IMG/VR virus record: IMGVR_UViG_3300042259_000159
DNA: 64,000 bases
Strand: one strand, 5' to 3'
From: a virus
Shown here in pieces: positions 4,269 to 64,000 of this stretch. Both the position numbers and the translations under genes were made by a program. Position 1 is the first letter of the stretch. Every line of letters begins with the position of its first letter. The notes under the pieces are model-generated. The model did no database searches. It saw only the letters and a list, made by a program, of their open reading frames with translations, and was not told the DNA's origin.

Positions 4269-5043
4269 GGGGCACTCCCAGATTGTACTTCTTAATAAGA
4301 GCGACTGCCGAATCTACATCCGAAGTGTTGATGATGTTGGTGATGTCTCCCTCTTCCTCAGCCAAGTCTCTTCCTGCAAGCAAGTCAACAACAGCTTGTC
4401 GGGAAGCGGAGAACACCCAACGCATCAGACGCTCTTCTTTAAGCCAAGCATTGGACAGAGTGCGATATTCCATGCCGTAAGGCTTAACACGAAAAGCCCC
4501 TGCCTTCCCGTAGAGTTCTCTCCTTTTGGTGTCCTTGTCGAACAGAAGAGAAGGCAATCCAAGGTAGAAATCCAGCTGCCGTGCAAGCTGACACGAAGCA
4601 AGGAAAGCTCCGAAGTCGTTCACATCATGCTCCATATAGCCGATATGAACATGCCCAGCAGCAGTGCGGAAGTCTCGATTACCGTCAGGAGAAGGGTTGA
4701 TGTCCTGCGTCCACCCATTGTAGTCGGGGTCACACCCCAATTCAAGAGCGGCAGGAGGCTGAGTAGCCATATACTCCTTGCCAAAATGAGCCACAGGCTC
4801 AATGACAATTTCCTCCTTCACCATACGACGAAGCTGAGCGAATACATGCTCAATGTTGCTGACGAAGGTGTTTTCATCAGCTGCCGGCTCAATGTTAAAC
4901 TCAAGAGCCATACCATCCACCTGTACAGCCCCCTTCTCAACAGGGAAAGGGGCTTCCTTAGTCCCGGGAATGAGGCCGTAGCCGGAGATGAACTTCCCAT
5001 TGTCCTTCACAAACAGTTCGGGGTCGGTGCCAATGTATATCAT
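4252..5043 (-). CDS. phiEco32-like COOH-NH2 ligase type 2
   Basis: N-terminus MIYIGTDPELFV, then DGMALEFNIEP and AAGHVHIGY, resembling the phage COOH-NH2 ligase type 2 family. Confidence 0.55.
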   Translation of the reverse strand: MIYIGTDPELFVKDNGKFISGYGLIPGTKEAPFPVEKGAVQVDGMALEFNIEPAADENTFVSNIEHVFAQLRRMVKEEIVIEPVAHFGKEYMATQPPAALELGCDPDYNGWTQDINPSPDGNRDFRTAAGHVHIGYMEHDVNDFGAFLASCQLARQLDFYLGLPSLLFDKDTKRRELYGKAGAFRVKPYGMEYRTLSNAWLKEERLMRWVFSASRQAVVDLLAGRDLAEEEGDITNIINTSDVDSAVALIKKYNLGVPHAVEI

Positions 5044-46871: not shown

Positions 46872-47999
46872 TTAATCCTCCCTGATATATTGTCCTACAG
46901 TATTCCCTTGCGGAATACCATCTTTCGAAAACTCCTGAAACTTAACATTAAGCCACTTGCCAATATAGCTGTCTTTGTACTTTATAATTTGCTCTCTATA
47001 GGCATCCTCCCCCATAGGTCTAACTTCAAAAATCTTTTTATTCTGGGTTTCACAGACAAACATACCTTGGCGGTATGCAACACACCCGTCTGTATTATAG
47101 ATTGGTTTTGTTTCCACCACATCTACAATTTTAAACTCATTATCCATAAAGCTTTTATATTTCCACAGGTGAGGAGACCTAGTACATTCATAGGGGGCAT
47201 CTATTCTTATTATTATGCCCTCAAATCCTTGCTGAACACGTTCGTTACATATCTTCTCCAAGGAATCACAGGAAGGCAGTCTCATATCCTTCTGCTGGAG
47301 GAGGGTGTTTGGGGTAAGAAAGGCAGTTCTTTCCCTATAAGTAAGATGCTCCATCCCCTTAATATAAACATCAAATACTACAAAGTCAATATCATATATT
47401 TCAGCATTACCTGTCTTTACAAATGAGTTGATATCTTGTAAGGGCATCCCGTGCTTATAAAACTCCCCATCAAGTATTACATTCTCCTCCTTGGCCTTCA
47501 TCCCTCTTGCAATCCTTGATATAAGAGCCTCTGACTGGTAATACGCACGGCATTGTAAAGGCACCTTGGAATATTCTACATTTTTACGTGAGAAAAACAG
47601 CCTTCTCCTGTCAACTTCTTGGAAGGTGGCTCGTAACCCGTTTAACTTATTTTGAAGCACCACAGACCCGCCCACGGCCATTTTTTCCATACGTCTATAG
47701 TTTTTCCTTCCGTCCTGCGCCTTCATAGGGTAGAAGGTGGAACCCCACTGTTCAATATCTTCGACATACCCTTTACGCTCTATCTGCTTCCTGTGCAGGG
47801 CGGCAGCTTCAAGACGTGCCTGTTCCTCTGCTGTTGTCTCATTTGCTTTCCCTATATTCTTACCGTTGCAAACCGTTTTTCTTTTTGTTTGTTTACCGCC
47901 CTGTGTTCCGTGGATAACAGTGAAGGAATCTCCCTCAACAAAGATCCTCCACTCCCTGATTTTGCCTTTTCTATCTTTAGCATATAGTGTGGAAAACAC
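46872..47999 (-). CDS. ATP-dependent DNA ligase
   Basis: Motif I QNKLNGLR (adenylation Lys), ILDGEFY, FEGIIIR, LWKYK. Confidence 0.7.
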   Translation of the reverse strand: MFSTLYAKDRKGKIREWRIFVEGDSFTVIHGTQGGKQTKRKTVCNGKNIGKANETTAEEQARLEAAALHRKQIERKGYVEDIEQWGSTFYPMKAQDGRKNYRRMEKMAVGGSVVLQNKLNGLRATFQEVDRRRLFFSRKNVEYSKVPLQCRAYYQSEALISRIARGMKAKEENVILDGEFYKHGMPLQDINSFVKTGNAEIYDIDFVVFDVYIKGMEHLTYRERTAFLTPNTLLQQKDMRLPSCDSLEKICNERVQQGFEGIIIRIDAPYECTRSPHLWKYKSFMDNEFKIVDVVETKPIYNTDGCVAYRQGMFVCETQNKKIFEVRPMGEDAYREQIIKYKDSYIGKWLNVKFQEFSKDGIPQGNTVGQYIRED

Positions 48000-48053
48000 A
48001 AAGAACCCCTGTACATAAAAAGTTTTCTGGAATAAAACAAAGGAAATACATAA

Positions 48054-48287
48054 TTAACCTTTATTCAGAAGAGATGTTAGCATTTCTGTAAAAGCCGCTA
48101 CCTCGTCCATCTCGTCTGAGAAGTTTTGTTTGTGAACAACCTTAACCACCCTATTGAACAAAGCAGGCTTGATATCAAACTCCTCTTTGGCAGTTTTTGC
48201 CAACTCTTTGCGCTGCTCTTTTATTTGATTTTCTTCTTCCATAAGTACTGCTGCCGATTCAATCATGTTCTTAAGCTTCTGTTCCAT
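48054..48287 (-). CDS. hypothetical protein
   Basis: ORF track. Confidence 0.4.
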   Translation of the reverse strand: MEQKLKNMIESAAVLMEEENQIKEQRKELAKTAKEEFDIKPALFNRVVKVVHKQNFSDEMDEVAAFTEMLTSLLNKG

Positions 48288-48296
48288 AATTCCTCC

Positions 48297-48848
48297 TTAT
48301 TTAACTCCTGTGCTTCCGTGACCACCACGATTTTTACCACTGAGGCTATCAACCTGTTTCAAAACAAAACCCTCACTGCGCATCGTGGATGTTACCCTGA
48401 ATTGGCAAACCCTATCATTTTTTGCTACTCTCCCATCACGCATAGCTATGACAGGGAAAAGCCACTCATCCCCCTCACCGCAGTAGGTGTTATCAATAAT
48501 GCCCATACTATTAGTGAGAAGAAATCCATAGTTTTTAAAGGTGGAAGATCGGGGAACAACATGTGCCTCGCTTCCCTCTGGTAGCTGCACTGCTATGCCA
48601 AGGCGGATTCTTAAATAATCGTTAGGATAATAATACCAATATTGTCCAGTATTTACCAAGGGCTTAAAAATAATCTCCCCTGTGCTTTTACACATATACC
48701 CTTTCTCAATGCTAGAAACACGAAGGTCAATCCAATCCCCGATATCAATTACCTCCGGCGGGATAAGGTCTTTATCCAAAACCTTAAAACAAATCTCCTT
48801 TCTCAAAACTACCTCCTTTTTAGGGGGTCGTAACCCCCTTTTTTTCAA
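48297..48848 (-). CDS. dut: dUTPase
   Basis: GIIDNTYCGEGDEW (motif 3) and NRGGHGSTG (motif 5). Confidence 0.8.
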   Translation of the reverse strand: MKKRGLRPPKKEVVLRKEICFKVLDKDLIPPEVIDIGDWIDLRVSSIEKGYMCKSTGEIIFKPLVNTGQYWYYYPNDYLRIRLGIAVQLPEGSEAHVVPRSSTFKNYGFLLTNSMGIIDNTYCGEGDEWLFPVIAMRDGRVAKNDRVCQFRVTSTMRSEGFVLKQVDSLSGKNRGGHGSTGVK

Positions 48849-51800
48849 CTAAATGCTTTTATCTACAAACTTTCTCTGTGGAAAATCAAATTCCCGCCTT
48901 GTTTTATTCCAAGCTTTTACGGGTGTAAAAAACCCAACAACCCTTGTCAGCTGTGTACTTATATCTTCCGAACATATGGGGCATGTACTGAAGGAACCCA
49001 TAGAGACATGGGAGTTGATACACTCAGAGTATACGGTATTAATGGCAAAATGTTCACATCCACAACCCAAAGCAAAACAGATAATTTTCTTGGCCTGCTC
49101 TCTTGTCAGCCTCTGCCCGACAGTGGCATGAACAATCCCCCCGCCTGTTAGGTTTTTAGTATATTCTCCGTCAATTCTGAGCCTGTCCCACAGAGATGCC
49201 TCTTCCCACAAAGGAACAAACTGGTTTGCATAGAGAGGGTATTCTATAAAAGTATCGCCGTGAATGATCTTATCTGCGCTGCAAACTTTTACAGCCATAC
49301 TCTCTGCTGGGATTTGCTCAATGTTGAAGACATATCCTGCGTTCTTCTTGGTATACAATCTAGCTTTTCTGTTAAGAAATGTCAAGATCTTTTTCTTCAA
49401 ATCCCCCTCAACACCGAACCTTTGTTTAAGAACCTTTTCACACTCGTAAAGACCAAGAATACCAAACGTTGAAAAGAGCCTGTTGAGGTCTATCCACCCA
49501 CGCGTTATAAAAGGCTGAAGACCTATTTGTTCAAGGACATGAATCAAGACCTTATGAGCAATCAGAATATCTTTAGCAGCCTCTACACGGTACGTGTATA
49601 TTTTCCAAAAATCATCAATACTCTCGGCCTCAATTGCCATCTTGTTGAAATTAAGAGTAACAACTCTATGGCTCCCGATGCTGGAAAGAACACCGGCACC
49701 GAAAGAATTGGAGGTGGATGCCACATCTAACATCTCTTCATCATTGATCAATCGGCAACAGCTAGCGATCTTTGTGCTCTCAGATGTGAAAATATTGTAG
49801 CGCGAAATGTCTCTATTAAGAAATATTTCCAAACTCTCTTCGTCTGCAAGGATGTAATCATCGCCGTCCTTAGTTTTTGAAATGTTCATCGTGCAAACAG
49901 GGAACCTGTAAGGCATCCCGTTATTTGAGGGATCTCCTTTATCAAAGATGTCTAGGAATATTTCCTGCAATTCAAAAACATAGTCAACACACTCTTCTAT
50001 ATCTACAACACCACCATCTGAAAACATCCACAAAAGATGTTCCTTTATGATGTACCTGAGTTTGTGTTTATCAAACACCGATACATTGGTAAAGGGACTC
50101 TCAACTCCGTCACGACTCAAATGGTTTACGCTGTGAATAAGCTGTTGAAACTCGTTTTCTATCTCTTTCCTCACAGCCTTATCGTTTTTAAGCACATCAA
50201 GGGGAACCTTATTCTTTATCATGAGAAGGTGAGCAACATCTATAAATACAGTACCTATGGCTAGAGCACCAGCAACATGCGATGACATTTGGTGGATTGT
50301 CTCACACAGGGCGGCAATATAACTATTAACTCTTTTTGCCGGTTTAGAGGGCAATACTCCAAAAGTTCTTCCTTCTGTAATGAGATTTGTTGCGTTTAAA
50401 GAATAACAATTATGTTGCACCATTCCGTTTGCATAAAAACGGCCCGTTGCTGTTGTCAAATCATATACGTCTTGAAGCTCCTCTCTAAGCTTTCTTGTAC
50501 TAGGAATGTCTTCAAGATTAAACCTGATGATTTTTACAACCCTGTTGCTTTCGCCCTTGGTGTTTGCTTTTTCATTATACTTATCATAGTCTTCTTTATG
50601 CATCTTCATCTTATCAGAAAGATCAACCATCTTATTCGTACTTGACGGGACAAAGGAAAGGGCATAAATCGAATTAGAAATATCACTCCCTTTTATCCTT
50701 TTTCTAAGGCATCGAATACCTTCAATGCCTCTAAGGACGTCATAAAGTGTGTTTATTACTGCCATAGACTGCAAACAAATCTCCACCCTGCCATTCTTTT
50801 TGTAGGTATATCCGTCCGCGTCTACAAGCCCCGCAACAAGTGCCTCTACAGAATCATTTGTCCAAGAGAGGATGTTCTTAGGAAGAACCTTTGTGAAGCT
50901 ATTTTCTTTGTTCCCGAAACCAAAAAAGGCACTTACAAGAAAATTCATATCATAAGAAGACCAATTAATCTGTCTCTCGACTTTATCACTGGGCTTAAAA
51001 AGATTCGCATCAGGAAACAAGTCTTTTATGATACTATAAATTCTTGAGTTATCAATATCGTTTTGATAAACACTGCAAAGCGTTCCCCCTCTTGTAAATC
51101 TGAAAGAGCCTTTTATGTCCTTACCGTTCATTACGCCATCATCAACACAATACCCTTCAAAGTTCCCATCACCAAGCATAAAGCCAAGAAGGTAGGCCAG
51201 CTTTTCTGGAACAATTATTGTTTTTTCCACGGAGGGCAAACAAGTCTCTGTCAAAACAGCATCCCCAACAGAAAGTTCTGAGGCTATTTTTTCAGTTCCA
51301 TCTTCCATATAGATTGGGTGGTTGTCTGTTACCAAAGCAAAGTGCCCTGCCTCTGTCTGATACAAAGAGAATCCTGTATCCGTTTTATGCTTGATAATAC
51401 GTTGTACAGCAACCCATCCATTGTTTGTATCCCAAACCTCTATATTAACTTTTTCACTCACATTGCAGGCCAACTTACCGGAACGACCTTTTGCGGTGTT
51501 CTTGTTAGTGATGTTCGCACTCACATTATTACGCAGCATTGCTGTTGTAATCTCTAGATCTCTTGTAAGGCCTTTTGTGTTAATTTCCTCATGCGTACCC
51601 CTATTTTCGGAGTGTATTGCAAACATATTGAAAAGCTTTTTAAGAGGAATACAAATAATCTCTCCGTTAATTCTGACAAAAACAGGCGTGTTTCCATAAT
51701 ACGAATATGGAAGGTTTAGCTTCGTGCTGTCGGAGATGGGAAGACTGAAATCCAACATTTCTCCTATAAGCCTTTTAGCCCTCTTCTTGCCGTAGAGTTC

Positions 51801-52184
51801 CTTCATAACACGGTAGAGGAAATCGTACCCTGCAATTTTTTTCTGGGGGGCACTTGCCTCACTCTGTATTCCGGCAATTGTCTTCTCATTCTTATTAGCA
51901 TTGTCATCAATAGAGACATCATTAATGTTTGCATTTAATTGTTTTTGAAACATCTTGAGAAAGTCTGTATTGTCCTGCGAAAGACCATGCAGACGCATAA
52001 GTTTTTCAGCTTTTGTATCAATCTCTTCTTGAGAAAGGGTTGTTTTACGAGAAAGATTCCTTTTCAAAGCCTTAAGCATCTGTTTCCGTGTGTATTCAAT
52101 CTCAGCATCATTTGTAAAAGATGAAGAAAAACCTTTAGCTATGCTATTCAAAGCAGTAAACTCCTTCTTTTGTAAGTTTAACAT
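48849..52184 (-). CDS. nrdD: anaerobic ribonucleoside-triphosphate reductase (class III), intein-containing
   Basis: C-terminal CPICS Zn site and glycyl-radical region TRVVGFFTPVKAWN. Likely start MLNLQKKEF at 52184, overlapping the nrdG 3' end. A 432-aa insert carries intein blocks. Confidence 0.8.
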   Translation of the reverse strand: MLNLQKKEFTALNSIAKGFSSSFTNDAEIEYTRKQMLKALKRNLSRKTTLSQEEIDTKAEKLMRLHGLSQDNTDFLKMFQKQLNANINDVSIDDNANKNEKTIAGIQSEASAPQKKIAGYDFLYRVMKELYGKKRAKRLIGEMLDFSLPISDSTKLNLPYSYYGNTPVFVRINGEIICIPLKKLFNMFAIHSENRGTHEEINTKGLTRDLEITTAMLRNNVSANITNKNTAKGRSGKLACNVSEKVNIEVWDTNNGWVAVQRIIKHKTDTGFSLYQTEAGHFALVTDNHPIYMEDGTEKIASELSVGDAVLTETCLPSVEKTIIVPEKLAYLLGFMLGDGNFEGYCVDDGVMNGKDIKGSFRFTRGGTLCSVYQNDIDNSRIYSIIKDLFPDANLFKPSDKVERQINWSSYDMNFLVSAFFGFGNKENSFTKVLPKNILSWTNDSVEALVAGLVDADGYTYKKNGRVEICLQSMAVINTLYDVLRGIEGIRCLRKRIKGSDISNSIYALSFVPSSTNKMVDLSDKMKMHKEDYDKYNEKANTKGESNRVVKIIRFNLEDIPSTRKLREELQDVYDLTTATGRFYANGMVQHNCYSLNATNLITEGRTFGVLPSKPAKRVNSYIAALCETIHQMSSHVAGALAIGTVFIDVAHLLMIKNKVPLDVLKNDKAVRKEIENEFQQLIHSVNHLSRDGVESPFTNVSVFDKHKLRYIIKEHLLWMFSDGGVVDIEECVDYVFELQEIFLDIFDKGDPSNNGMPYRFPVCTMNISKTKDGDDYILADEESLEIFLNRDISRYNIFTSESTKIASCCRLINDEEMLDVASTSNSFGAGVLSSIGSHRVVTLNFNKMAIEAESIDDFWKIYTYRVEAAKDILIAHKVLIHVLEQIGLQPFITRGWIDLNRLFSTFGILGLYECEKVLKQRFGVEGDLKKKILTFLNRKARLYTKKNAGYVFNIEQIPAESMAVKVCSADKIIHGDTFIEYPLYANQFVPLWEEASLWDRLRIDGEYTKNLTGGGIVHATVGQRLTREQAKKIICFALGCGCEHFAINTVYSECINSHVSMGSFSTCPICSEDISTQLTRVVGFFTPVKAWNKTRREFDFPQRKFVDKSI
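50409..51704 (-). mobile_element. intein with LAGLIDADG homing endonuclease domain inside NrdD
   Basis: Block A SYYGNTPVFV (Ser1), block B LVTDNHPIY, LAGLIDADG motifs LAYLLGFMLGDGNF and LVAGLVDADGYTY, C-terminal FYANGMVQHN followed by extein Cys (CYSLN). Confidence 0.8.
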
Positions 52185-52659
52185 AATTATTATTATAAAG
52201 TTCTTGGTTAGACGAACCAAGTACGAGTTTTGTCCTTTGCCCTTTTGTTGTATCTGACTGGTGCAGTTCTTTTATATACTCTCCTGTTTTTATAAATTTG
52301 AAACCGTTAAGATTAAGGTATTTAACAGTGTCAATATCGTATCCAGTATAAATACATATGTTAAAACACCCACCGTATTGTTCTAAGAACTGTGCTGTAA
52401 ACCCTCTGTTGCAGGAGGCTAGCGGATCTCCACCAAGAAGTACAATATTATTTGTGCGGTATTTTAAGGTCTCCTGTTTACAATGGTTGTAGAAGTCTTC
52501 AATGGAAAATTCCACACCACCCTGATATTCAGGGTTTTGCAGGGAGGGGTTATGACACCCCTTACAGGAAAAATCACACCCACACATAAAAAGACTTACT
52601 GCCCACCCATCCTTTGAGGGGTAGTCTGTAAATGTCATCTCAGAACCTGCAAATCTCAT
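52144..52659 (-). CDS. nrdG: anaerobic RNR activating enzyme (radical SAM)
   Basis: CGCDFSCKGCHNP (CxxxCxxC cluster). Confidence 0.8.
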   Translation of the reverse strand: MRFAGSEMTFTDYPSKDGWAVSLFMCGCDFSCKGCHNPSLQNPEYQGGVEFSIEDFYNHCKQETLKYRTNNIVLLGGDPLASCNRGFTAQFLEQYGGCFNICIYTGYDIDTVKYLNLNGFKFIKTGEYIKELHQSDTTKGQRTKLVLGSSNQELYNNNYVKLTKEGVYCFE

Positions 52660-52661
52660 TT

Positions 52662-53258
52662 TTATCCTTCTCTTTCCAGAGCAACATCTATAAGGGATTG
52701 GAACTCCGGCGGGAGGCTGTTATACATTTTTTGTGCCATTTCCCTTATTTCCCACTGTGCGTCTTTTGCCATACGGAGTTTTAGAAAATTGATTAATGCT
52801 CTTAGATTCATTGTTACCATAATTTTTGTGGTAGTTGCGTTCGGGAACACAAAACGTGCATCCTCTTTTTTAACCCCAGCATCAAGCAGGCGATTGTATG
52901 TGTCCCATATAACCTCCATTGTATCTTCATAAAGATCACGAATATAGCCATCCTCGTGCTCTGATATGCTTGGTGGAGTGACATAAGAAGGCTCTTCTGT
53001 CTTTACATACCTTTGACTTGCCTGTGTATATGATGCAATACGGTGTCTTACCTGTTGATGTGTTAGTGCGCGGGATACCCCTGTAATTTCAAAACAAAAA
53101 GCAGAATGCTCCACAACACTTTCGTGTCCTTTCTTAATACACTTTTTAACAAGCGCTGTATCACTCGCACCCCCATTGTCAGAAACACTTTCATAGGGTA
53201 TTCTGGCAGCACGACAAATAGTTGTGTATTTCAAACAATCAACAAGTTCTACTTTCAT
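52662..53258 (-). CDS. thyX: flavin-dependent thymidylate synthase
   Basis: ThyX motif QVRHRIASYTQASQRY. ATG at 53258 after AAAGGAGG. Confidence 0.8.
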   Translation of the reverse strand: MKVELVDCLKYTTICRAARIPYESVSDNGGASDTALVKKCIKKGHESVVEHSAFCFEITGVSRALTHQQVRHRIASYTQASQRYVKTEEPSYVTPPSISEHEDGYIRDLYEDTMEVIWDTYNRLLDAGVKKEDARFVFPNATTTKIMVTMNLRALINFLKLRMAKDAQWEIREMAQKMYNSLPPEFQSLIDVALEREG

Positions 53259-53422
53259 TACGCCTCCTTTTTTACCCAAGATGTGGGCTTATAATCATTG
53301 CCTATTCGGCAGTTTTTACACTCTACCTTCCTGTGGTGTCTATAGGGGCCACTTGCACAGCTTATGCATGTAAGATTTGTCTCAACATGCCCACGGTTTT
53401 TCCTCTCTACAAAGACATTCAT
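53258..53422 (-). CDS. Zn-ribbon protein (54 aa)
   Basis: ATG after AAGGAG; CISC...CKNC. Its stop overlaps the thyX ATG (TAATG). Below the track cut-off. Confidence 0.4.
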   Translation of the reverse strand: MNVFVERKNRGHVETNLTCISCASGPYRHHRKVECKNCRIGNDYKPTSWVKKEA

Positions 53423-54658: not shown

Positions 54659-55108
54659 TTACTTATCTCTCTGGTAGTAGTGCTTTGATATTGCACTTCT
54701 TTCCATTTTTTGAATTTTTTTATTCTGAACGTCGGACCCATAACGTCCAGAACACGTTCTGGAACAAAAGGGCCCAGCTTTATTTTTAATGTTTCTCTGT
54801 GTCACCGTTGGCGTAAAAAGAGAATCGCAATATGGACACTTTACTTCTTCCACTCTCACCCTTACCACATCAAGCGAAGCATGGGAGGATCTACACAAAA
54901 CTTGTAAATTTTCAATTTTGTTGTTCAGTGGATTTCTATCAATGTGGTCAACTGTCTCAGATGGATCTAAAACTCTGCCCAGATGCACTTCCATTATAAT
55001 TCTGGAAGCCTGTTTAGCAGTTCTTTTAATTCCATCATATAAAACAATGACCAGTCTACCGTCTTTCCTTAAATATGGCCCATAAATTTTTTTACACTCT
55101 GGGTACAA
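54659..55108 (-). CDS. HNH homing endonuclease
   Basis: VDHIDRNPLNNKIENLQVLCRSSHA plus C-terminal CPYC...CSRTC. The track ORF extends to 55192 but overlaps tRNA-Leu; a TTG at 55108 is proposed as the start. Confidence 0.65.
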   Translation of the reverse strand: MYPECKKIYGPYLRKDGRLVIVLYDGIKRTAKQASRIIMEVHLGRVLDPSETVDHIDRNPLNNKIENLQVLCRSSHASLDVVRVRVEEVKCPYCDSLFTPTVTQRNIKNKAGPFCSRTCSGRYGSDVQNKKIQKMERSAISKHYYQRDK

Positions 55109-55122
55109 TTTTTGAATGTGTT

Positions 55123-55206
55123 TGGTAGGAGAAGAGAGATTCGAACTCTCAAGGAATAATCCGTCGAGGCTTAAACTCGATGTGTTTACCATTTCACCAT
55201 TCTCCC
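55123..55206 (-). tRNA. tRNA-Leu (anticodon UAA), type II with long variable arm, CCA encoded
   Basis: GGGAGAA/TTCTCCT acceptor, anticodon arm TCGAG-TTTAAGC-CTCGA, T-arm GAGAG-TTCGAAT-CTCTC. Confidence 0.75.
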
Positions 55207-55245
55207 GTATTTTTTATCTACCATTCCGCCATTCCCGCATTTATT

Positions 55246-55323
55246 TGGTACCCACTGTGAGATTCGAACCCACACTAATCAGTTTCTAAGACTGATGCCT
55301 CTGCCAAGTTGGGCTATACCAGT
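55246..55323 (-). tRNA. chimeric / possibly defective tRNA (anticodon UAG, short variable loop)
   Basis: Good D, anticodon (TCAGT-CTTAGAA-ACTGA) and T arms. However, 5' acceptor ACTGGTA pairs poorly with the local 3' strand AGTGGGT and well with TGCCAGT at 54617..54646. Confidence 0.45.
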
Positions 55324-55581
55324 ATTATGCTTATTATTTTATTTTGAAAGGCCATATGTATACACATATATATATATACATATATATATGTATAGAGCAA
55401 CCAAAATGGTTAAATAAAAAGGTGTTTTGTGGAGACACCAAACTCCTCCAGTTTTAGTGATCTGGAAACAATAAGCGGCGCAGGTGCTCTTTAAAACACG
55501 TGCTACCAAGCGTATAAATTGTCTAGGGGATTTCACCAAACACATTATGTTATTGGAGGGATCTTTCCCTAGACTCAGTAA

Positions 55582-55654
55582 AGCTCCTGACAGGACTTGA
55601 ACCCGCAACCGGCTGATTACAAATCAGCTGCTCTGCCAGTTGAGCTACAGGAGC
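55582..55654 (-). tRNA. tRNA-Thr (anticodon UGU), no encoded CCA
   Basis: GCTCCTG/CAGGAGC acceptor, GCTGA-TTTGTAA-TCAGC. Confidence 0.8.
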
Positions 55655-55658
55655 AGAA

Positions 55659-55730
55659 CAGAGGGAGAAGGATTCGAACCTTCGAATGACGGGACCAAAA
55701 CCCGTTGCCTTACCGCTTGGCTACCCCTCT
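55659..55730 (-). tRNA. tRNA-Gln (anticodon UUG), no encoded CCA
   Basis: ACGGG-TTTTGGT-CCCGT anticodon arm, T-arm GAAGG-TTCGAAT-CCTTC. Confidence 0.75.
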
Positions 55731-55738
55731 AAATTTTT

Positions 55739-55815
55739 TGGCTCCGGCGGCAGGATTTGAACCTACATTCGCAATGGTTAACAGCCATTTGCCTTACCAA
55801 TTCGGCGACACCGGA
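55739..55815 (-). tRNA. tRNA-Asn (anticodon GUU), CCA encoded
   Basis: AATGG-CTGTTAA-CCATT, TTCAAAT T-loop, acceptor TCCGGTG/CGCCGGA. Confidence 0.75.
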
Positions 55816-55860
55816 ATGAACTTTTTATTTGTTATCAGCATTGTTTTGCTTTATTTTAAA

Positions 55861-55939
55861 TGGTCTCGGTGATTAGATTTGAACTAATGATTATTCCTGC
55901 TCCCAAAGCAGGTGCCATACCAAGCTAGGCGACACCGAG
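55861..55939 (-). tRNA. tRNA-Pro (anticodon UGG), CCA encoded
   Basis: CCTGC-TTTGGGA-GCAGG, T-arm ATTAG-TTCAAAT-CTAAT, acceptor CTCGGTG/CACCGAG. The variable region is slightly long. Confidence 0.65.
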
Positions 55940-56293
55940 ATCAGGTGTGGTACCAAACTCCACTATGGGCAGAGGTTATAAGAAGGTCCGTACATGATAT
56001 AGACAGATATTCTTCCATAACAGCGGTACGGACGCTGTCTCATTTTTATATCTTTCAGTGTGCTATTACGCCAAAGGGAAATTAAGCCTTACCAGTTACG
56101 GGGTGCCCTTTTACTATCCACAAAGAATTTCAAATCGCGTGCATTCTAAGTATCGGAAAATTCTACAACCACTTAAAGTACACCTCGTTTAAGAGATAGC
56201 GACCTGTGCTTCGTCCCACTCTTTAAAGGATGGCTGCCTCAAAGCCCACCTCCTGAAAAATGCATGAAGGATTATCCCTCCTTCGCTAAATAC

Positions 56294-56322
56294 AACCTAT
56301 CAATTTTAAGGGTTCTTGTCAA
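56294..56322 (-). promoter_or_regulatory. sigma70-type promoter (TTGACA-N17-TAGGTT, then GTATTTAGC) facing the tRNA cluster
   Basis: The minus strand has the same architecture as the promoters at 26289 and 32237. Confidence 0.5.
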
Positions 56323-56423
56323 GAACATTTTAAGGTTTTTGAAATTTTTGTTGAACGCTGATTTGCTACGCGGGTACAGCGTTCGAAACCTCGATAGCAT
56401 CCTTGCCGTTGGCAAAGCTGTCA

Positions 56424-56505
56424 GGAGCCGCAGGAGGAGAATTGAACTCCTCTGGCATCAACACGCAGTCACCACAACTACATCTACCGTTACGGGTATG
56501 GCTCC
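56424..56505 (-). ncRNA. degenerate tRNA-like element
   Basis: GGAGCC/GGCTCC acceptor-like helix, hairpin GTAGT-TGTGGTG-ACTGC, perfect T-arm AGGAG-TTCAATT-CTCCT. It has extra nucleotides and a non-canonical anticodon loop. Confidence 0.3.
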
Positions 56506-56519
56506 CCATCCTAGTCACC

Positions 56520-56790
56520 TGTTGATACCTTATAGGTTCAGCCCTACCAAGGGCACTGCGGCTTAAGTGGGTTGGTTGGTGCAGATTGTGAACGTACCCC
56601 CGCCTATAGAGGCGGAAGCTTCCTGCTTCAGCGAGAACAGCACCAGTAACTCCGAAGAGTTGTGGCGAATTACACTCTCTCCACAGGCGTAAATTCCCGT
56701 GCGACCCACGGTACTTTATGAGTTACGCTAGGCAGATATTCGCCCAGCTTCTTCTCTAATATTTATTGCAGCGTTCTTGTCACGGTTATG
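56520..56790 (-). ncRNA. expected TnpB omega-RNA (reRNA) region
   Basis: Located by position at the 3' end of tnpB plus downstream sequence. Hairpins CCGTGGGTCGCACGG, ACTCttcgGAGT and CCGCCtctataGGCGGGGG are present; the exact ends are unknown. Confidence 0.3.
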
Positions 56791-57976
56791 ATGACTGCCA
56801 CACTTAAGGCAATCCCATTCCCGCACAGACAAGTCTTTGGTATCCTTGTTCTGGTAGCCACAGACATGGCATAGCTGACTGCTTGGATACCATTTGTCTA
56901 TCTTGATAAGTTGCTTACCCTGCCATGCAAGTTTGTATTTCAGCATACTTGTGAACATGCTCCAGCCGTTGTCGGATATGGATTTACCAAAGTTGAACTT
57001 GCCACCCTTCTTTCGCTTCGCCATGTCCTTTACGCTAATGTCCTCTATGCCAATCACATCATAGCGGTCTGCAAGATAACGAGCTTTCTTATGCAGGAAG
57101 TCGCGGCGTTGATTAGCAATTTTCTCATGGAGTACAGCCAAACGTAGTCTTTGTTTATTCCTATTACGGCTCCCTTTTTGTCTCTTGGAGAGTTTTCTTT
57201 GTGCCTTGATCAATCTCTTTTCGGCTTCCCGTAAGAAATTTGGATAATCGGCGTTGTCCTCATCGGAAGCAACATACATCCCGTGCATAGCAAAATCCAA
57301 TCCAAGAAAATTCTTCGGTATGATGGGAAGTATTTGGTTTTCATACTCCACCAAAATACTAATATAGTATTTTCCTGACGGTGTTTTACTTATGGTTACA
57401 GTCTTTATGGTGCTATTCTCCATCAATGGACGATGCAGACACAGCTTTACCCAACCTATTTTCGGCAGCTTGACTTTGTTTCCCTCGATTCTTACAGAGC
57501 CATGTTGGTTGTTCGTAGAATATGAAGCATGACCCGCTTTCTTCGACTTGAAGCGTGGCTTGCAAAAATGCTTCCTATTGCTCCAAAAGTTGTTATACGC
57601 CTTGTTCAGGTTTATTTGGGCATTGGCGAGAGCAAGGCTGTCAACCTCTTTCAGCCAAGGAAACTCTTTCTTGTACTGTGCAGGTGTGTTGTTCAGCCTC
57701 TCTCCTGTTTCCTTATAGTGATCAAGACGATCTCCAAGCATCTTGTTATAGATGAATCTGGCACTGCCGAAAGTCTTGGCAAACATAATCTTCTGTTCAA
57801 TTGTCGGGTAGAGTCTATATCGGTATGCCTTATTCACTATAATCACCTGCCTTGATTTTCTATGTATTTACGAATTGTCTCAAACGGAGCAATTATCTGG
57901 CTCAACTACTTACGTAAATTCGCTAGACACACCTTCATCCCCCACCTTAGAGGTGGAGGGCTTCTGGCGGGTTAGG
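56560..57976 (-). mobile_element. IS200/IS605-family TnpB-only element (boundaries approximate)
   Basis: tnpB is flanked by similar subterminal hairpins: LE CCCTCCACCtctaaGGTGGGGG (57939-57960) and RE CCGCCtctataGGCGGGGG (56597-56614). No tnpA is present. Confidence 0.55.
56728..57846 (-). CDS. tnpB: TnpB (OrfB_IS605) RNA-guided nuclease
   Basis: N-terminus AYRYRLYPTIEQKIMFAKTFGSARFIYN. RuvC-like GLDFAM / IGIEDISVKDM / RDKNAAINI. Zn-ribbon CHVCGY...CLKCGSHHNRD. Confidence 0.9.
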   Translation of the reverse strand: MIIVNKAYRYRLYPTIEQKIMFAKTFGSARFIYNKMLGDRLDHYKETGERLNNTPAQYKKEFPWLKEVDSLALANAQINLNKAYNNFWSNRKHFCKPRFKSKKAGHASYSTNNQHGSVRIEGNKVKLPKIGWVKLCLHRPLMENSTIKTVTISKTPSGKYYISILVEYENQILPIIPKNFLGLDFAMHGMYVASDEDNADYPNFLREAEKRLIKAQRKLSKRQKGSRNRNKQRLRLAVLHEKIANQRRDFLHKKARYLADRYDVIGIEDISVKDMAKRKKGGKFNFGKSISDNGWSMFTSMLKYKLAWQGKQLIKIDKWYPSSQLCHVCGYQNKDTKDLSVREWDCLKCGSHHNRDKNAAINIREEAGRISA

Positions 57977-58013
57977 TTAAATCCCTTGTGTCTACTAATT
58001 CCACCAATCGGGC
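57977..58013 (-). pseudogene. truncated tRNA-Leu(UAA) 5' half ending at the anticodon (..AAGGGATTTAA)
   Basis: GCCCGATTGGTGGAATTAGTAGACACAAGGGATTTAA, then unrelated sequence (the IS left end). It duplicates the 5' half and upstream spacer of the tRNA at 58023..58109. Confidence 0.7.
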
Positions 58014-58022
58014 TAAAATCTT

Positions 58023-58109
58023 TGGTGCCCAATGCAGGACTCGAACCTGCACGCCATTTCAGGCAGGAGGGCTTAAACCTCGTGTGTCTACCAATTCCAC
58101 CAATCGGGC
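58023..58109 (-). tRNA. tRNA-Leu (anticodon UAA), type II, CCA encoded
   Basis: Close to E. coli leuZ-type layout: GCCCGAT..GTGGAATTGGTAGACAC..TTTAAGC..TGCAGGTTCGAGTCCTGCATTGGGCACCA. Confidence 0.8.
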
Positions 58110-58118
58110 TAAAATCTT

Positions 58119-58202
58119 TGGTGCCTCAGACAGGATTCGAACCTGCACGGATCTCTCCACTTGGTCCTAAGCCAAGCGTGTCTGCCATTCCACCACTGAG
58201 GC
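58119..58202 (-). tRNA. tRNA-Leu (anticodon UAG), type II, CCA encoded
   Basis: GCCTCAG acceptor, CTTGG-CTTAGGA-CCAAG, long variable arm, GCAGGTTCGAATCCTGT. Confidence 0.8.
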
Positions 58203-63082: not shown

Positions 63083-63368
63083 AACATTTTGGGTGCCGCA
63101 GGTTCGGGAAAGTCATACATAATGAATATGATACCTTTGAGGTATGTCGATTGCCCCAACTTTAGGGGGATTGTCTTCCGAAGGGAAACGACACAGCTTA
63201 CAGGTGAAGGGGGGATGTGGGATACAGCAACGGAGATATACTCTGAGCTGCCTAAAAATATCAGGCCCAAAATATTGAAACATAACCTGAGAATGATTTT
63301 TCCGAATGGGGCAAAAATTAAGTTTTCACACATGGAAAATGATAATGATTTCAGGAAACATCAAGGGT
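63083..63368 (+). CDS. terL: terminase large subunit, exon 2 (Walker A)
   Basis: NILGAAGSGKSYIMN...GIVFRRETTQL...KFSHMENDNDFRKHQG. Confidence 0.7.
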
Positions 63369-63622
63369 TAATTAGTAGCCCCTTGTGTTGGTGACAGCGC
63401 AAGCAAACTAACCTAATTCGGTGGAAGCCCAAACATGTAGGATGTGGGTGATACCGAGCAAGCCACGGCGTGTGTAACGACTAGTTCTTAGGAACGTAGG
63501 CCCAAGCGGGTCGAAACGGTTAGCATCTTATTAAGATGAAGATATAGTCTACTCTGCATGGAAACATGCAGCGGACACTTTATGTGTCGGGCAGATGTTA
63601 GCGCCATCTGTTGAATATTATG
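63369..63622 (+). ncRNA. group I intron 2 in terL (ORF-less, approx 254 nt)
   Basis: GTAACGACTAGTTC...GAAGATATAGTCTAC (compare canonical AGATATAGTC), CTGCATGgaaaCATGCAG, CAGATG..CATCTG. U before the 5' junction and G before the 3' junction. Confidence 0.65.
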
Positions 63623-63739
63623 TACAATATACCCTGATATGCTTTGATGAGGCAACACATTTCACTTTCCAACAAGTTGAATACTTAATGTCACGTATGA
63701 GAAGTAAAAGTAAGTATGCTTCTCGTATGGTTCTGTCGT
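63623..63739 (+). CDS. terL: terminase large subunit, exon 3 (Walker B)
   Basis: (L)QYTLICFDEATHFTFQQVEYLMSRMRSKSKYASRMVLS; the 3' end is approximate. Confidence 0.65.
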
Positions 63740-64000
63740 GGATTACGCGACATGTATGGCGAAAGCTGTACTGGCAACTGTGTGAACTCAGGGAAACCTT
63801 AGCTGCTGCAATTGGGCAGAGGAAGAAGGCAATCCTGAGCGAAGCCTTCCCACCGGGAAGGAACGTGCAACGACCATCGAAAGCGTAACACCTGTTACAG
63901 TGAGTAGAGTACACCACACATGTGTGGTGGAAGCGCACAGCCCCTAACATGTAACGATGAGGGTGAAGATATGGTCTGAACCTACAGAAATGTAGAAAAA
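63740..64000 (+). ncRNA. group I intron 3 in terL (runs off right edge)
   Basis: CAACGACCATCG...GAAGATATGGTCTGA, with GACCA/TGGTC replacing the GACTA/TAGTC of introns 1 and 2. Hairpin CCTACAgaaaTGTAG(G). Confidence 0.55.

Follow-up and report, generated by a model that had tools for sequence, protein, structure and literature searches.

Inteins are commonplace in the ribonucleotide reductase (RNR) genes of phages (PMC3653736, PMC3037004), and in jumbo phages of the gut the class III gene nrdD has been described as broken up by introns and intein domains (PMC12880540). About one in ten surveyed inteins is reported to have serine as its first residue (Ser1), the pairs Ser1/Ser+1 and Ser1/Thr+1 accounting for about 5% each (PMC11766414). 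The pair Ser1/Cys+1 is described in the accessible literature only from the split GOS-TerL intein (Bachmann and Mootz 2015, cited in PMC11923092). Here we analyse an insert with this pair in the nrdD gene of IMG/VR virus record IMGVR_UViG_3300042259_000159, a stretch of 64,000 nucleotides (nt) that we call the window. We read the insert, with a probability of about 0.9, as a class 1 intein of the canonical type that carries a homing endonuclease with two LAGLIDADG motifs, in frame in a phage nrdD between the active-site Tyr (position -1) and the catalytic Cys (+1).

GOS-TerL is the nearest precedent for the nucleophiles. According to the accessible accounts, it shares with the window intein Ser1 and Cys+1, and hence an oxyester-to-thioester transesterification, as well as class 1 membership and a phage or metagenomic origin; the same accounts present it as a naturally split mini-intein in a terminase, without an endonuclease and reportedly without the NX histidine. 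The NX motif, a His after Lys or Arg, is conserved in Ser1/Ser(Thr)+1 inteins and essential in three tested inteins, and its His is absent from GOS-TerL (PMC10189870). Unlike GOS-TerL, the window intein is a contiguous element of NrdD with a LAGLIDADG endonuclease; its NX Lys-His is intact, and it is one of a widespread family. By sequence, the closest solved splicing domain is that of the Neq Pol intein (Nanoarchaeum equitans PolB; PDB 5oxw, 5oxx and 5oxz). Both inteins begin with Ser1, the NX region ...WVKVYSIIKHE of Neq Pol aligns with ...WVAVQRIIKHK of the window (E 2e-5), and blocks F and G match as well (YDLSTESGKFYVNGLVLHN against YDLTTATGRFYANGMVQHN). Neq Pol differs in being naturally split, in having Thr+1 and no endonuclease, and in its host, a DNA polymerase.

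Other described inteins resemble the insert in location or in architecture. The NrdD intein of Clostridium phages c-st and D-1873 (PMC3653736) likewise lies in a phage class III RNR of the Thermotoga maritima-like (SCCR) type, but it occupies the site ASC/C (here and below a slash within a sequence marks the insertion point) with Cys1/Cys+1, and its likeness to the window intein is weak and local (blastp E 0.005, ~100 residues). The combination of a HINT domain and a two-motif LAGLIDADG endonuclease recurs in PI-SceI, PI-PfuI, TliVMA, PhoVMA and PI-TkoII, the best structural and profile matches; these share 11-17% identity with the window intein, their hosts are V-ATPase, class II RNR and DNA polymerase, and none has Ser1/Cys+1. 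PI-TkoII is a Ser1 intein too (PMC10189870). The element is ordinary in kind, and its nucleophile pair is known from one split intein only in the accessible intein literature. It is this pair, rather than Ser1 alone, that is unusual, a point overlooked in an earlier note that had proposed an intein here from the letters of the window.

Host protein and natural empty alleles

The nrdD reading frame was unbroken from an ATG at 52184, or from an in-frame TTG at 52220, down to 48849 on the minus strand; the claim of the earlier note that the gene runs continuously through the block was thus borne out. A public gene call (JGI metagenome 3300042258, 70-kb contig Ga0451648_000250) also starts nrdD at ATG 52184 and gives an identical protein of 1111 amino acids (aa). 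The start is nevertheless uncertain: read from this ATG, nrdD shares 41 nt with the end of nrdG, and in the relative L001 the called gene starts 11 codons farther downstream. NCBIfam NrdD models matched in two stretches that flank the intein block. After deletion of the intein, the protein aligned end to end with T. maritima NrdD (tmNrdD; PDB 4coi; E 3e-63), the junction ...LNLPY/CYSL... coming to lie over ...LMPYCFAY... and the Cys+1 codon (50406-50408, minus strand) over Cys125. The host protein has the attributes of a class III RNR, namely an NRDD domain, the PYC and SCCR active-site Cys pair and an adjoining NrdG activase. Near its C terminus, the stretch TRVVGFF, aligned with mRIVGYL of tmNrdD, is what we take to be the glycyl-radical region. 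Computed masses were 77.1 kDa for spliced NrdD and 48.6 kDa for the intein.

Natural empty alleles fixed the boundaries of the insert. A contig from ENA (L001) matched the window DNA with 97.2% identity over 1201 nt upstream and 96.2% over 656 nt downstream of the insert, and was without precisely 1296 nt, reading CCATAT/TGTTAT where the window has CCATAT/TCGTAT...CATAAT/TGTTAT. The wider empty site in L001 is ...AAGCTAAACCTTCCATAT/TGTTATTCTTTAAACGCAAC..., and the protein that it encodes (P0001) reads KLNLPYCYSLNATN across the junction. In a second lineage, the protein P0015 (1125 aa) has a homologous insert and P0220 (673 aa, ...NILKPY/CYSVNASK...) is empty; the two fall into a single 90%-identity cluster and have essentially identical exteins. 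The comparison with intein-less NrdD homologues that the earlier note had suggested gave the junction PY/C in all 16 further insert-free proteins.

These alleles agree with what the earlier note had deduced. Its coordinates for a 432-aa block, 50409-51704, were exact, with the minus strand left unstated. The excision it proposed, joining KLNLPY to CYSLNATN, yields the same sequence as the natural empty allele P0001/L001 and one colinear with tmNrdD. It had held that NrdD homologues in which these residues form an integral domain would speak against an intein; the comparison did not bring up such proteins, and insert-free homologues are common. In view of these and of the natural empty alleles, the block is therefore not an integral domain of NrdD. 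At the junction itself, the first intein codons TCG TAT TAT (SYY, 51696-51704) resemble the C-extein codons TGT TAT TCT (CYS, 50400-50408); this likeness, which makes BLAST alignments overlap by 17 nt, is probably due to chance.

Splicing domain, endonuclease and family

The insert displays the sequence features of a class 1 intein, with Ser at position 1, Thr-x-x-His in block B, Asp in block F, and His-Asn followed by Cys+1 (Table 1). The individual motifs named in the earlier note (SYYGNTPVFV, TDNHP, two LAGLIDADG motifs, and GMVQHN before Cys+1) were each found in their places. Membership of class 2 or class 3 was ruled out, position 1 being Ser, not Ala, and position F:4 being Asp415, not Cys. 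Four plus-strand open reading frames (ORFs; 72-102 aa) scanned inside the intein block gave no Pfam match.

Table 1. Features of the nrdD locus and of other elements in the window
Feature	Position	Strand	Remarks
nrdD precursor ORF	48849..52184	-	1111 aa + stop, ~126 kDa; Pfam NRDD 228.7 bits
N-extein	51705..52184	-	160 aa, ends ...KLNLPY; Tyr-1 = Tyr124 of T. maritima NrdD
Intein	50409..51704	-	432 aa, 48.6 kDa; HINT splicing domain split by LAGLIDADG endonuclease domain
C-extein	48849..50408	-	519 aa + stop, begins CYSLNATN; includes SCCR motif
Ser1 codon TCG	51702..51704	-	N-terminal splicing nucleophile
Block A	51663-51704	-	SYYGNTPVFVRING
NX motif RIIKHK	51384..51401	-	Lys105-His106; signature of Ser1 inteins (PMC10189870)
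Block B	51306..51347	-	GHFALVTDNHPIYM; Thr126 and His129 (TDNH)
LAGLIDADG motif 1	51159..51200	-	LAYLLGFMLGDGNF; catalytic Asp179; aligned with matching PI-SceI motif
LAGLIDADG motif 2	50805..50849	-	VEALVAGLVDADGYT; catalytic Asp297
Block F	50430-50468	-	VYDLTTATGRFYA
Block G	50409-50429	-	NGMVQHN
Blocks F and G	50409..50468	-	VYDLTTATGRFYANGMVQHN; Asp415, His431, Asn432; matches Neq Pol C-intein
Site b, empty second intein site	49755..49760	-	two Cys codons of ASC/CRL
ATP-dependent DNA ligase	46872-47999	-	
DsbA-like protein	48054-48287	-	
dUTPase	48297-48848	-	
nrdG, radical-SAM activase of NrdD	52144..52659	-	PF13353; immediately upstream of nrdD
ThyX	52662-53279	-	
HNH_3 endonuclease ORF	54659-55192	-	E 9e-10
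Two Rfam group I intron matches	63359-63571, 63728-63997	+	76-77 bits, full-length model; at the window's right end, ~150 nt between them

We searched 1.84 billion representatives with the intein using HMMER and obtained 198 matches at E<=1e-3, 29 of them at E<=1e-30. Most fell at residues 125-175 of proteins of 900-2000 aa, the same position in NrdD homologues; with this number of matches, mostly at one NrdD position, chance is excluded. Conservation was counted in 50 inserts extracted from this site, 25-50% identical to the window intein. Thr126 and His129 of block B, Asp415 of block F, and His431 and Asn432 of block G were present in all 50. The last N-extein residue, Tyr-1, and Cys+1 were each present in 49, and Ser1 also in 49, the remaining insert having Cys. 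The acidic residues (Asp or Glu) of the LAGLIDADG motifs at Asp179 and Asp297 were likewise each found in 49/50, and Lys272, which aligns with the Lys in the GVKNIP stretch of PI-SceI, in 46/50.

The family occurs on IMG/VR viral contigs, including one of 91.6 kb with an identical intein, on contigs of 200-280 kb, and on contigs of bacterial and archaeal metagenome-assembled genomes (MAGs) assigned to Thermoplasmatales, Lachnospiraceae, Thermoprotei and Saccharibacteria. Wherever the N junction of the MAG members could be located, the insert had the form PY/S...HN/C in an NrdD gene. The window's own precursor protein was found on 3 contigs, the longest of 117 kb. Among 50,697 deposited phage genomes there was no match to the gene by megablast or to the intein by tblastn, and PHROGs had no family for the intein; the family is thus unrepresented among deposited phage genomes at these sensitivities. 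A word-indexed protein search with the intein alone also returned nothing, which reflects a limit of the index, since other searches found clear homologues.

An AlphaFold2 model of the intein, built from an alignment of 18 family sequences, reached a pLDDT of 84.9 and a pTM of 0.85. Foldseek ranked TliVMA first in the PDB (E 6e-20), followed by PI-PfuI, PhoVMA, PI-TkoII and PI-SceI, all of them endonuclease-bearing inteins, and gave a probability of 1.00 to TliVMA, PI-PfuI, PI-SceI and the TFIIB mini-inteins. The mini-inteins matched the splicing half of the model and I-DmoI the endonuclease half (TM by target 0.6-0.69). The family profile in turn matched PI-SceI and PI-PfuI at ~1e-9. The model confidently predicts a HINT fold with a LAGLIDADG endonuclease fold. 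Together with the empty sites and the residues conserved among the 50 inserts, this predicted fold upholds the central proposal of the earlier note, a LAGLIDADG intein with Ser1 in a class III RNR.

The Ser1/Cys+1 pair, splicing and homing

The pair Ser1/Cys+1 was present in 48 or 49 of the 50 family members. The NX His, His106 in the RIIKHK stretch upstream of block B, was kept in 48/50 and the preceding Lys or Arg in 50/50. A profile of the NX region found the Neq Pol N-intein as its top PDB match (E 2e-5), with His106 aligned on His61, the residue named as the NX counterpart in Neq Pol (PMC10189870); the PolB16 intein was matched in this region more weakly (E 0.13). We disregarded trypsin matches of the same profile, which arise from a chance '...I[IV][KR]H' match, and a phmmer search of the PDB with a 70-aa NX-region fragment had given only spurious matches to designed repeat proteins. 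In P0068, the sole Cys1 member (CMYGNTP...), Arg replaces the NX His. This is one case and anecdotal, but a joint change of this kind is what a role of the NX His in serving Ser1 would lead one to expect. Inteins of the Ser1 type with an NX motif have Ser or Thr at +1 and so cysteine-free junctions, whereas Cys+1 is found here in 49/50. By these residues, the window intein would be of the Ser1 type at its N junction but outside the cysteine-less group. We propose that an intein of the Ser1 oxyester lineage moved into a site at which its host imposes Cys at +1.

We infer both splicing and DNA cleavage from the sequence. Splicing would begin at Tyr-Ser1, where an N-to-O acyl shift, with the help of Thr126, His129 and the NX residue His106, yields a linear oxyester. 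The thiol of Cys+1 would then attack this oxyester to form a branched thioester, a step described as energetically uphill and presumably pulled forward by the next; such oxyester-to-thioester splicing is documented so far, in the accessible accounts, only for GOS-TerL (PMC11766414). Cyclisation of Asn432, helped by His431, would release the 48.6-kDa intein, and an S-to-N shift would leave the native ...PY-C... active site in a 77.1-kDa NrdD. The homing endonuclease is probably active. The free intein would cut intein-less nrdD around CCATAT/TGTTAT in co-infecting relatives, and repair would copy the intein in. We base homing into empty alleles on the intact nuclease residues and the two pairs of filled and empty alleles.

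Several results weigh against this reading. The Pfam model for the splicing domain (PF14890, Intein_splicing) scored 30.3-31.3 bits (E 2e-7), below its gathering score of 35.8, a cut-off that serves classification and is no biochemical criterion, the family being divergent; the endonuclease models PF14528 (LAGLIDADG_3) and PF05204 scored 19.8 and 16.6 bits against cut-offs of 22.5 and 21.1, so that the sequence by itself does not attain curated thresholds. In the AlphaFold2 model, residues 53-78 and 191-199, two disordered loops, were of low confidence. The closest GOS-TerL homologue is reported to have been inactive when given Ser1/Cys+1 (PMC11766414), and the pair thus cannot be assumed to function in any intein scaffold. 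Single-nucleotide polymorphisms (SNPs) between the window and L001 were not enriched near the insertion site, leaving no signature of co-conversion, and GC content overall and at third codon positions (0.39 and 0.375 in the intein, 0.40 and 0.41 in the extein) gave no compositional sign of recent foreign origin. Recent gain by homing is therefore indistinguishable from precise loss.

The absence of a SNP excess, together with the subthreshold endonuclease scores and the existence of shorter family members (332-390 aa), would suit an intein that still splices but whose endonuclease is no longer active, so that vertical inheritance or precise deletion accounts for the pattern and presence or absence reflects loss. 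We hold this to be unlikely. The two acidic residues of the catalytic site, and the Lys that aligns with one of PI-SceI, are kept in 46-49 of the 50 inserts at an overall identity of only 25-50%, which argues for selection on the nuclease; moreover, each of two lineages has filled and empty alleles whose exteins are near-identical, and the family spans very different phage and cellular backgrounds. It is more improbable by far that the intein has degenerated and no longer splices, or that the insert has been domesticated as a domain, nrdD being a pseudogene or working with the insert in place. The insert does break up the active site, and host ribonucleotide reductases can serve phages. Against this stand an ORF intact over 1111 codons, catalytic splicing residues all conserved family-wide, exteins that are obviously constrained (94-97% identical to the empty allele) and the common occurrence of insert-free homologues; moreover, the insert parts the equivalents of Tyr124 and Cys125, which must adjoin in the active site.

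The chemistry at the N junction could also be other than we propose. If Ser1 were not the first nucleophile and Cys+1 attacked the Tyr-Ser1 bond directly, in the manner of class 2 inteins such as Mja KlbA, the uphill step would be spared. Class 2 inteins prove direct attack by Cys+1 chemically possible (PMC4031507), and transfer from oxyester to thioester is thermodynamically unfavourable and rare (PMC11766414). We nevertheless think this route quite improbable, given that the sole replacement of Ser1 among the 50 inserts is Cys and never Ala, that the NX Lys/Arg-His reported as specific to Ser1 oxyester inteins is lost just in the lone Cys1 member, and that GOS-TerL, with the same pair, is reported in the accessible accounts to follow the class 1 path (PMC11766414).

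Within the class 1 reading, we suggest tentatively, at rather less than even odds, that these inserts are the first contiguous, endonuclease-bearing and phylogenetically widespread Ser1/Cys+1 family, that the invariant catalytic Cys of the host forces a +1 thiol on a Ser1 oxyester lineage, and that the NX pattern argues for a His that activates Ser1 rather than the +1 attack. The choice between these two roles was left open in PMC10189870. Were this so, the second splicing step would need the free thiol of a redox-active Cys in an oxygen-sensitive enzyme, and maturation of NrdD could, more speculatively, be redox-gated.

Insertion site, neighbouring elements and significance

Cys125 of tmNrdD is the catalytic Cys that every RNR retains, and Tyr124 is poised over the ribose (PMC4493059). 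With Cys+1 and Tyr-1 at these positions, the intein comes between two neighbouring residues of the active site, a place typical of inteins. The insert represents a new allele, and the NrdD site that it occupies, at this universal catalytic Cys, had not been described before. A literature search on whether inteins also occupy the homologous Cys of class I and II RNRs yielded nothing relevant. We also considered the NrdD inteins of Methanocaldococcus jannaschii as possible occupants of this site.

L001, empty at the catalytic Cys, carries at site b (1841-2850) a 337-aa Cys1/Cys+1 intein homologous to the Clostridium phage c-st intein; in the window the situation is reversed, and therefore genomes that are 96-97% identical carry different inteins in nrdD. 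The NrdD clade is an intein hot spot, with inserts near extein positions ~160, 208, 255-263 and 378 and up to four per protein; the proteins concerned are P0068 (1987 aa), P0008 (1632 aa), P0005, P0013, P0024, P0066 and P0073. In P0218 (938 aa), from the same 90% cluster as P0015 and P0220, the intein at the catalytic Cys is present and the ORF ends within a second element that starts at SC/C. This second element (CHNFEDV...TPNH...) may be a split intein or one interrupted by another gene.

The nrdD gene lies inside a block of nucleotide-metabolism and replication genes (46872-53279, minus strand). L001 has an additional gene, for a 181-aa MT-A70 family methyltransferase (4312-4857), between the genes for its dUTPase and its DsbA-like protein; the window lacks this gene at the corresponding place, ~48297-48303. 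The earlier note had placed the intein alongside selfish elements acting at the RNA and DNA levels, and elsewhere in the window group I introns and a gene for an HNH endonuclease are indeed real. The HNH_3 ORF overlaps at its 5' end the first gene in a cluster of eight tRNA genes (55126-58202, minus strand); either it encodes a free-standing homing endonuclease that lies beside or within this cluster, or its start is over-extended.

For annotation, our analysis means that nrdD is one gene whose product is predicted to mature by protein splicing, rather than a fusion or pseudogene. To intein biochemists it offers dozens of natural, divergent Ser1/Cys+1 inteins, with a built-in comparison for the role of the NX His, which the family keeps, GOS-TerL reportedly lacks and the one Cys1 relative has lost. 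To phage biology it contributes a new insertion site in an NrdD clade with up to four inserts, and matched filled and empty alleles for the study of homing.

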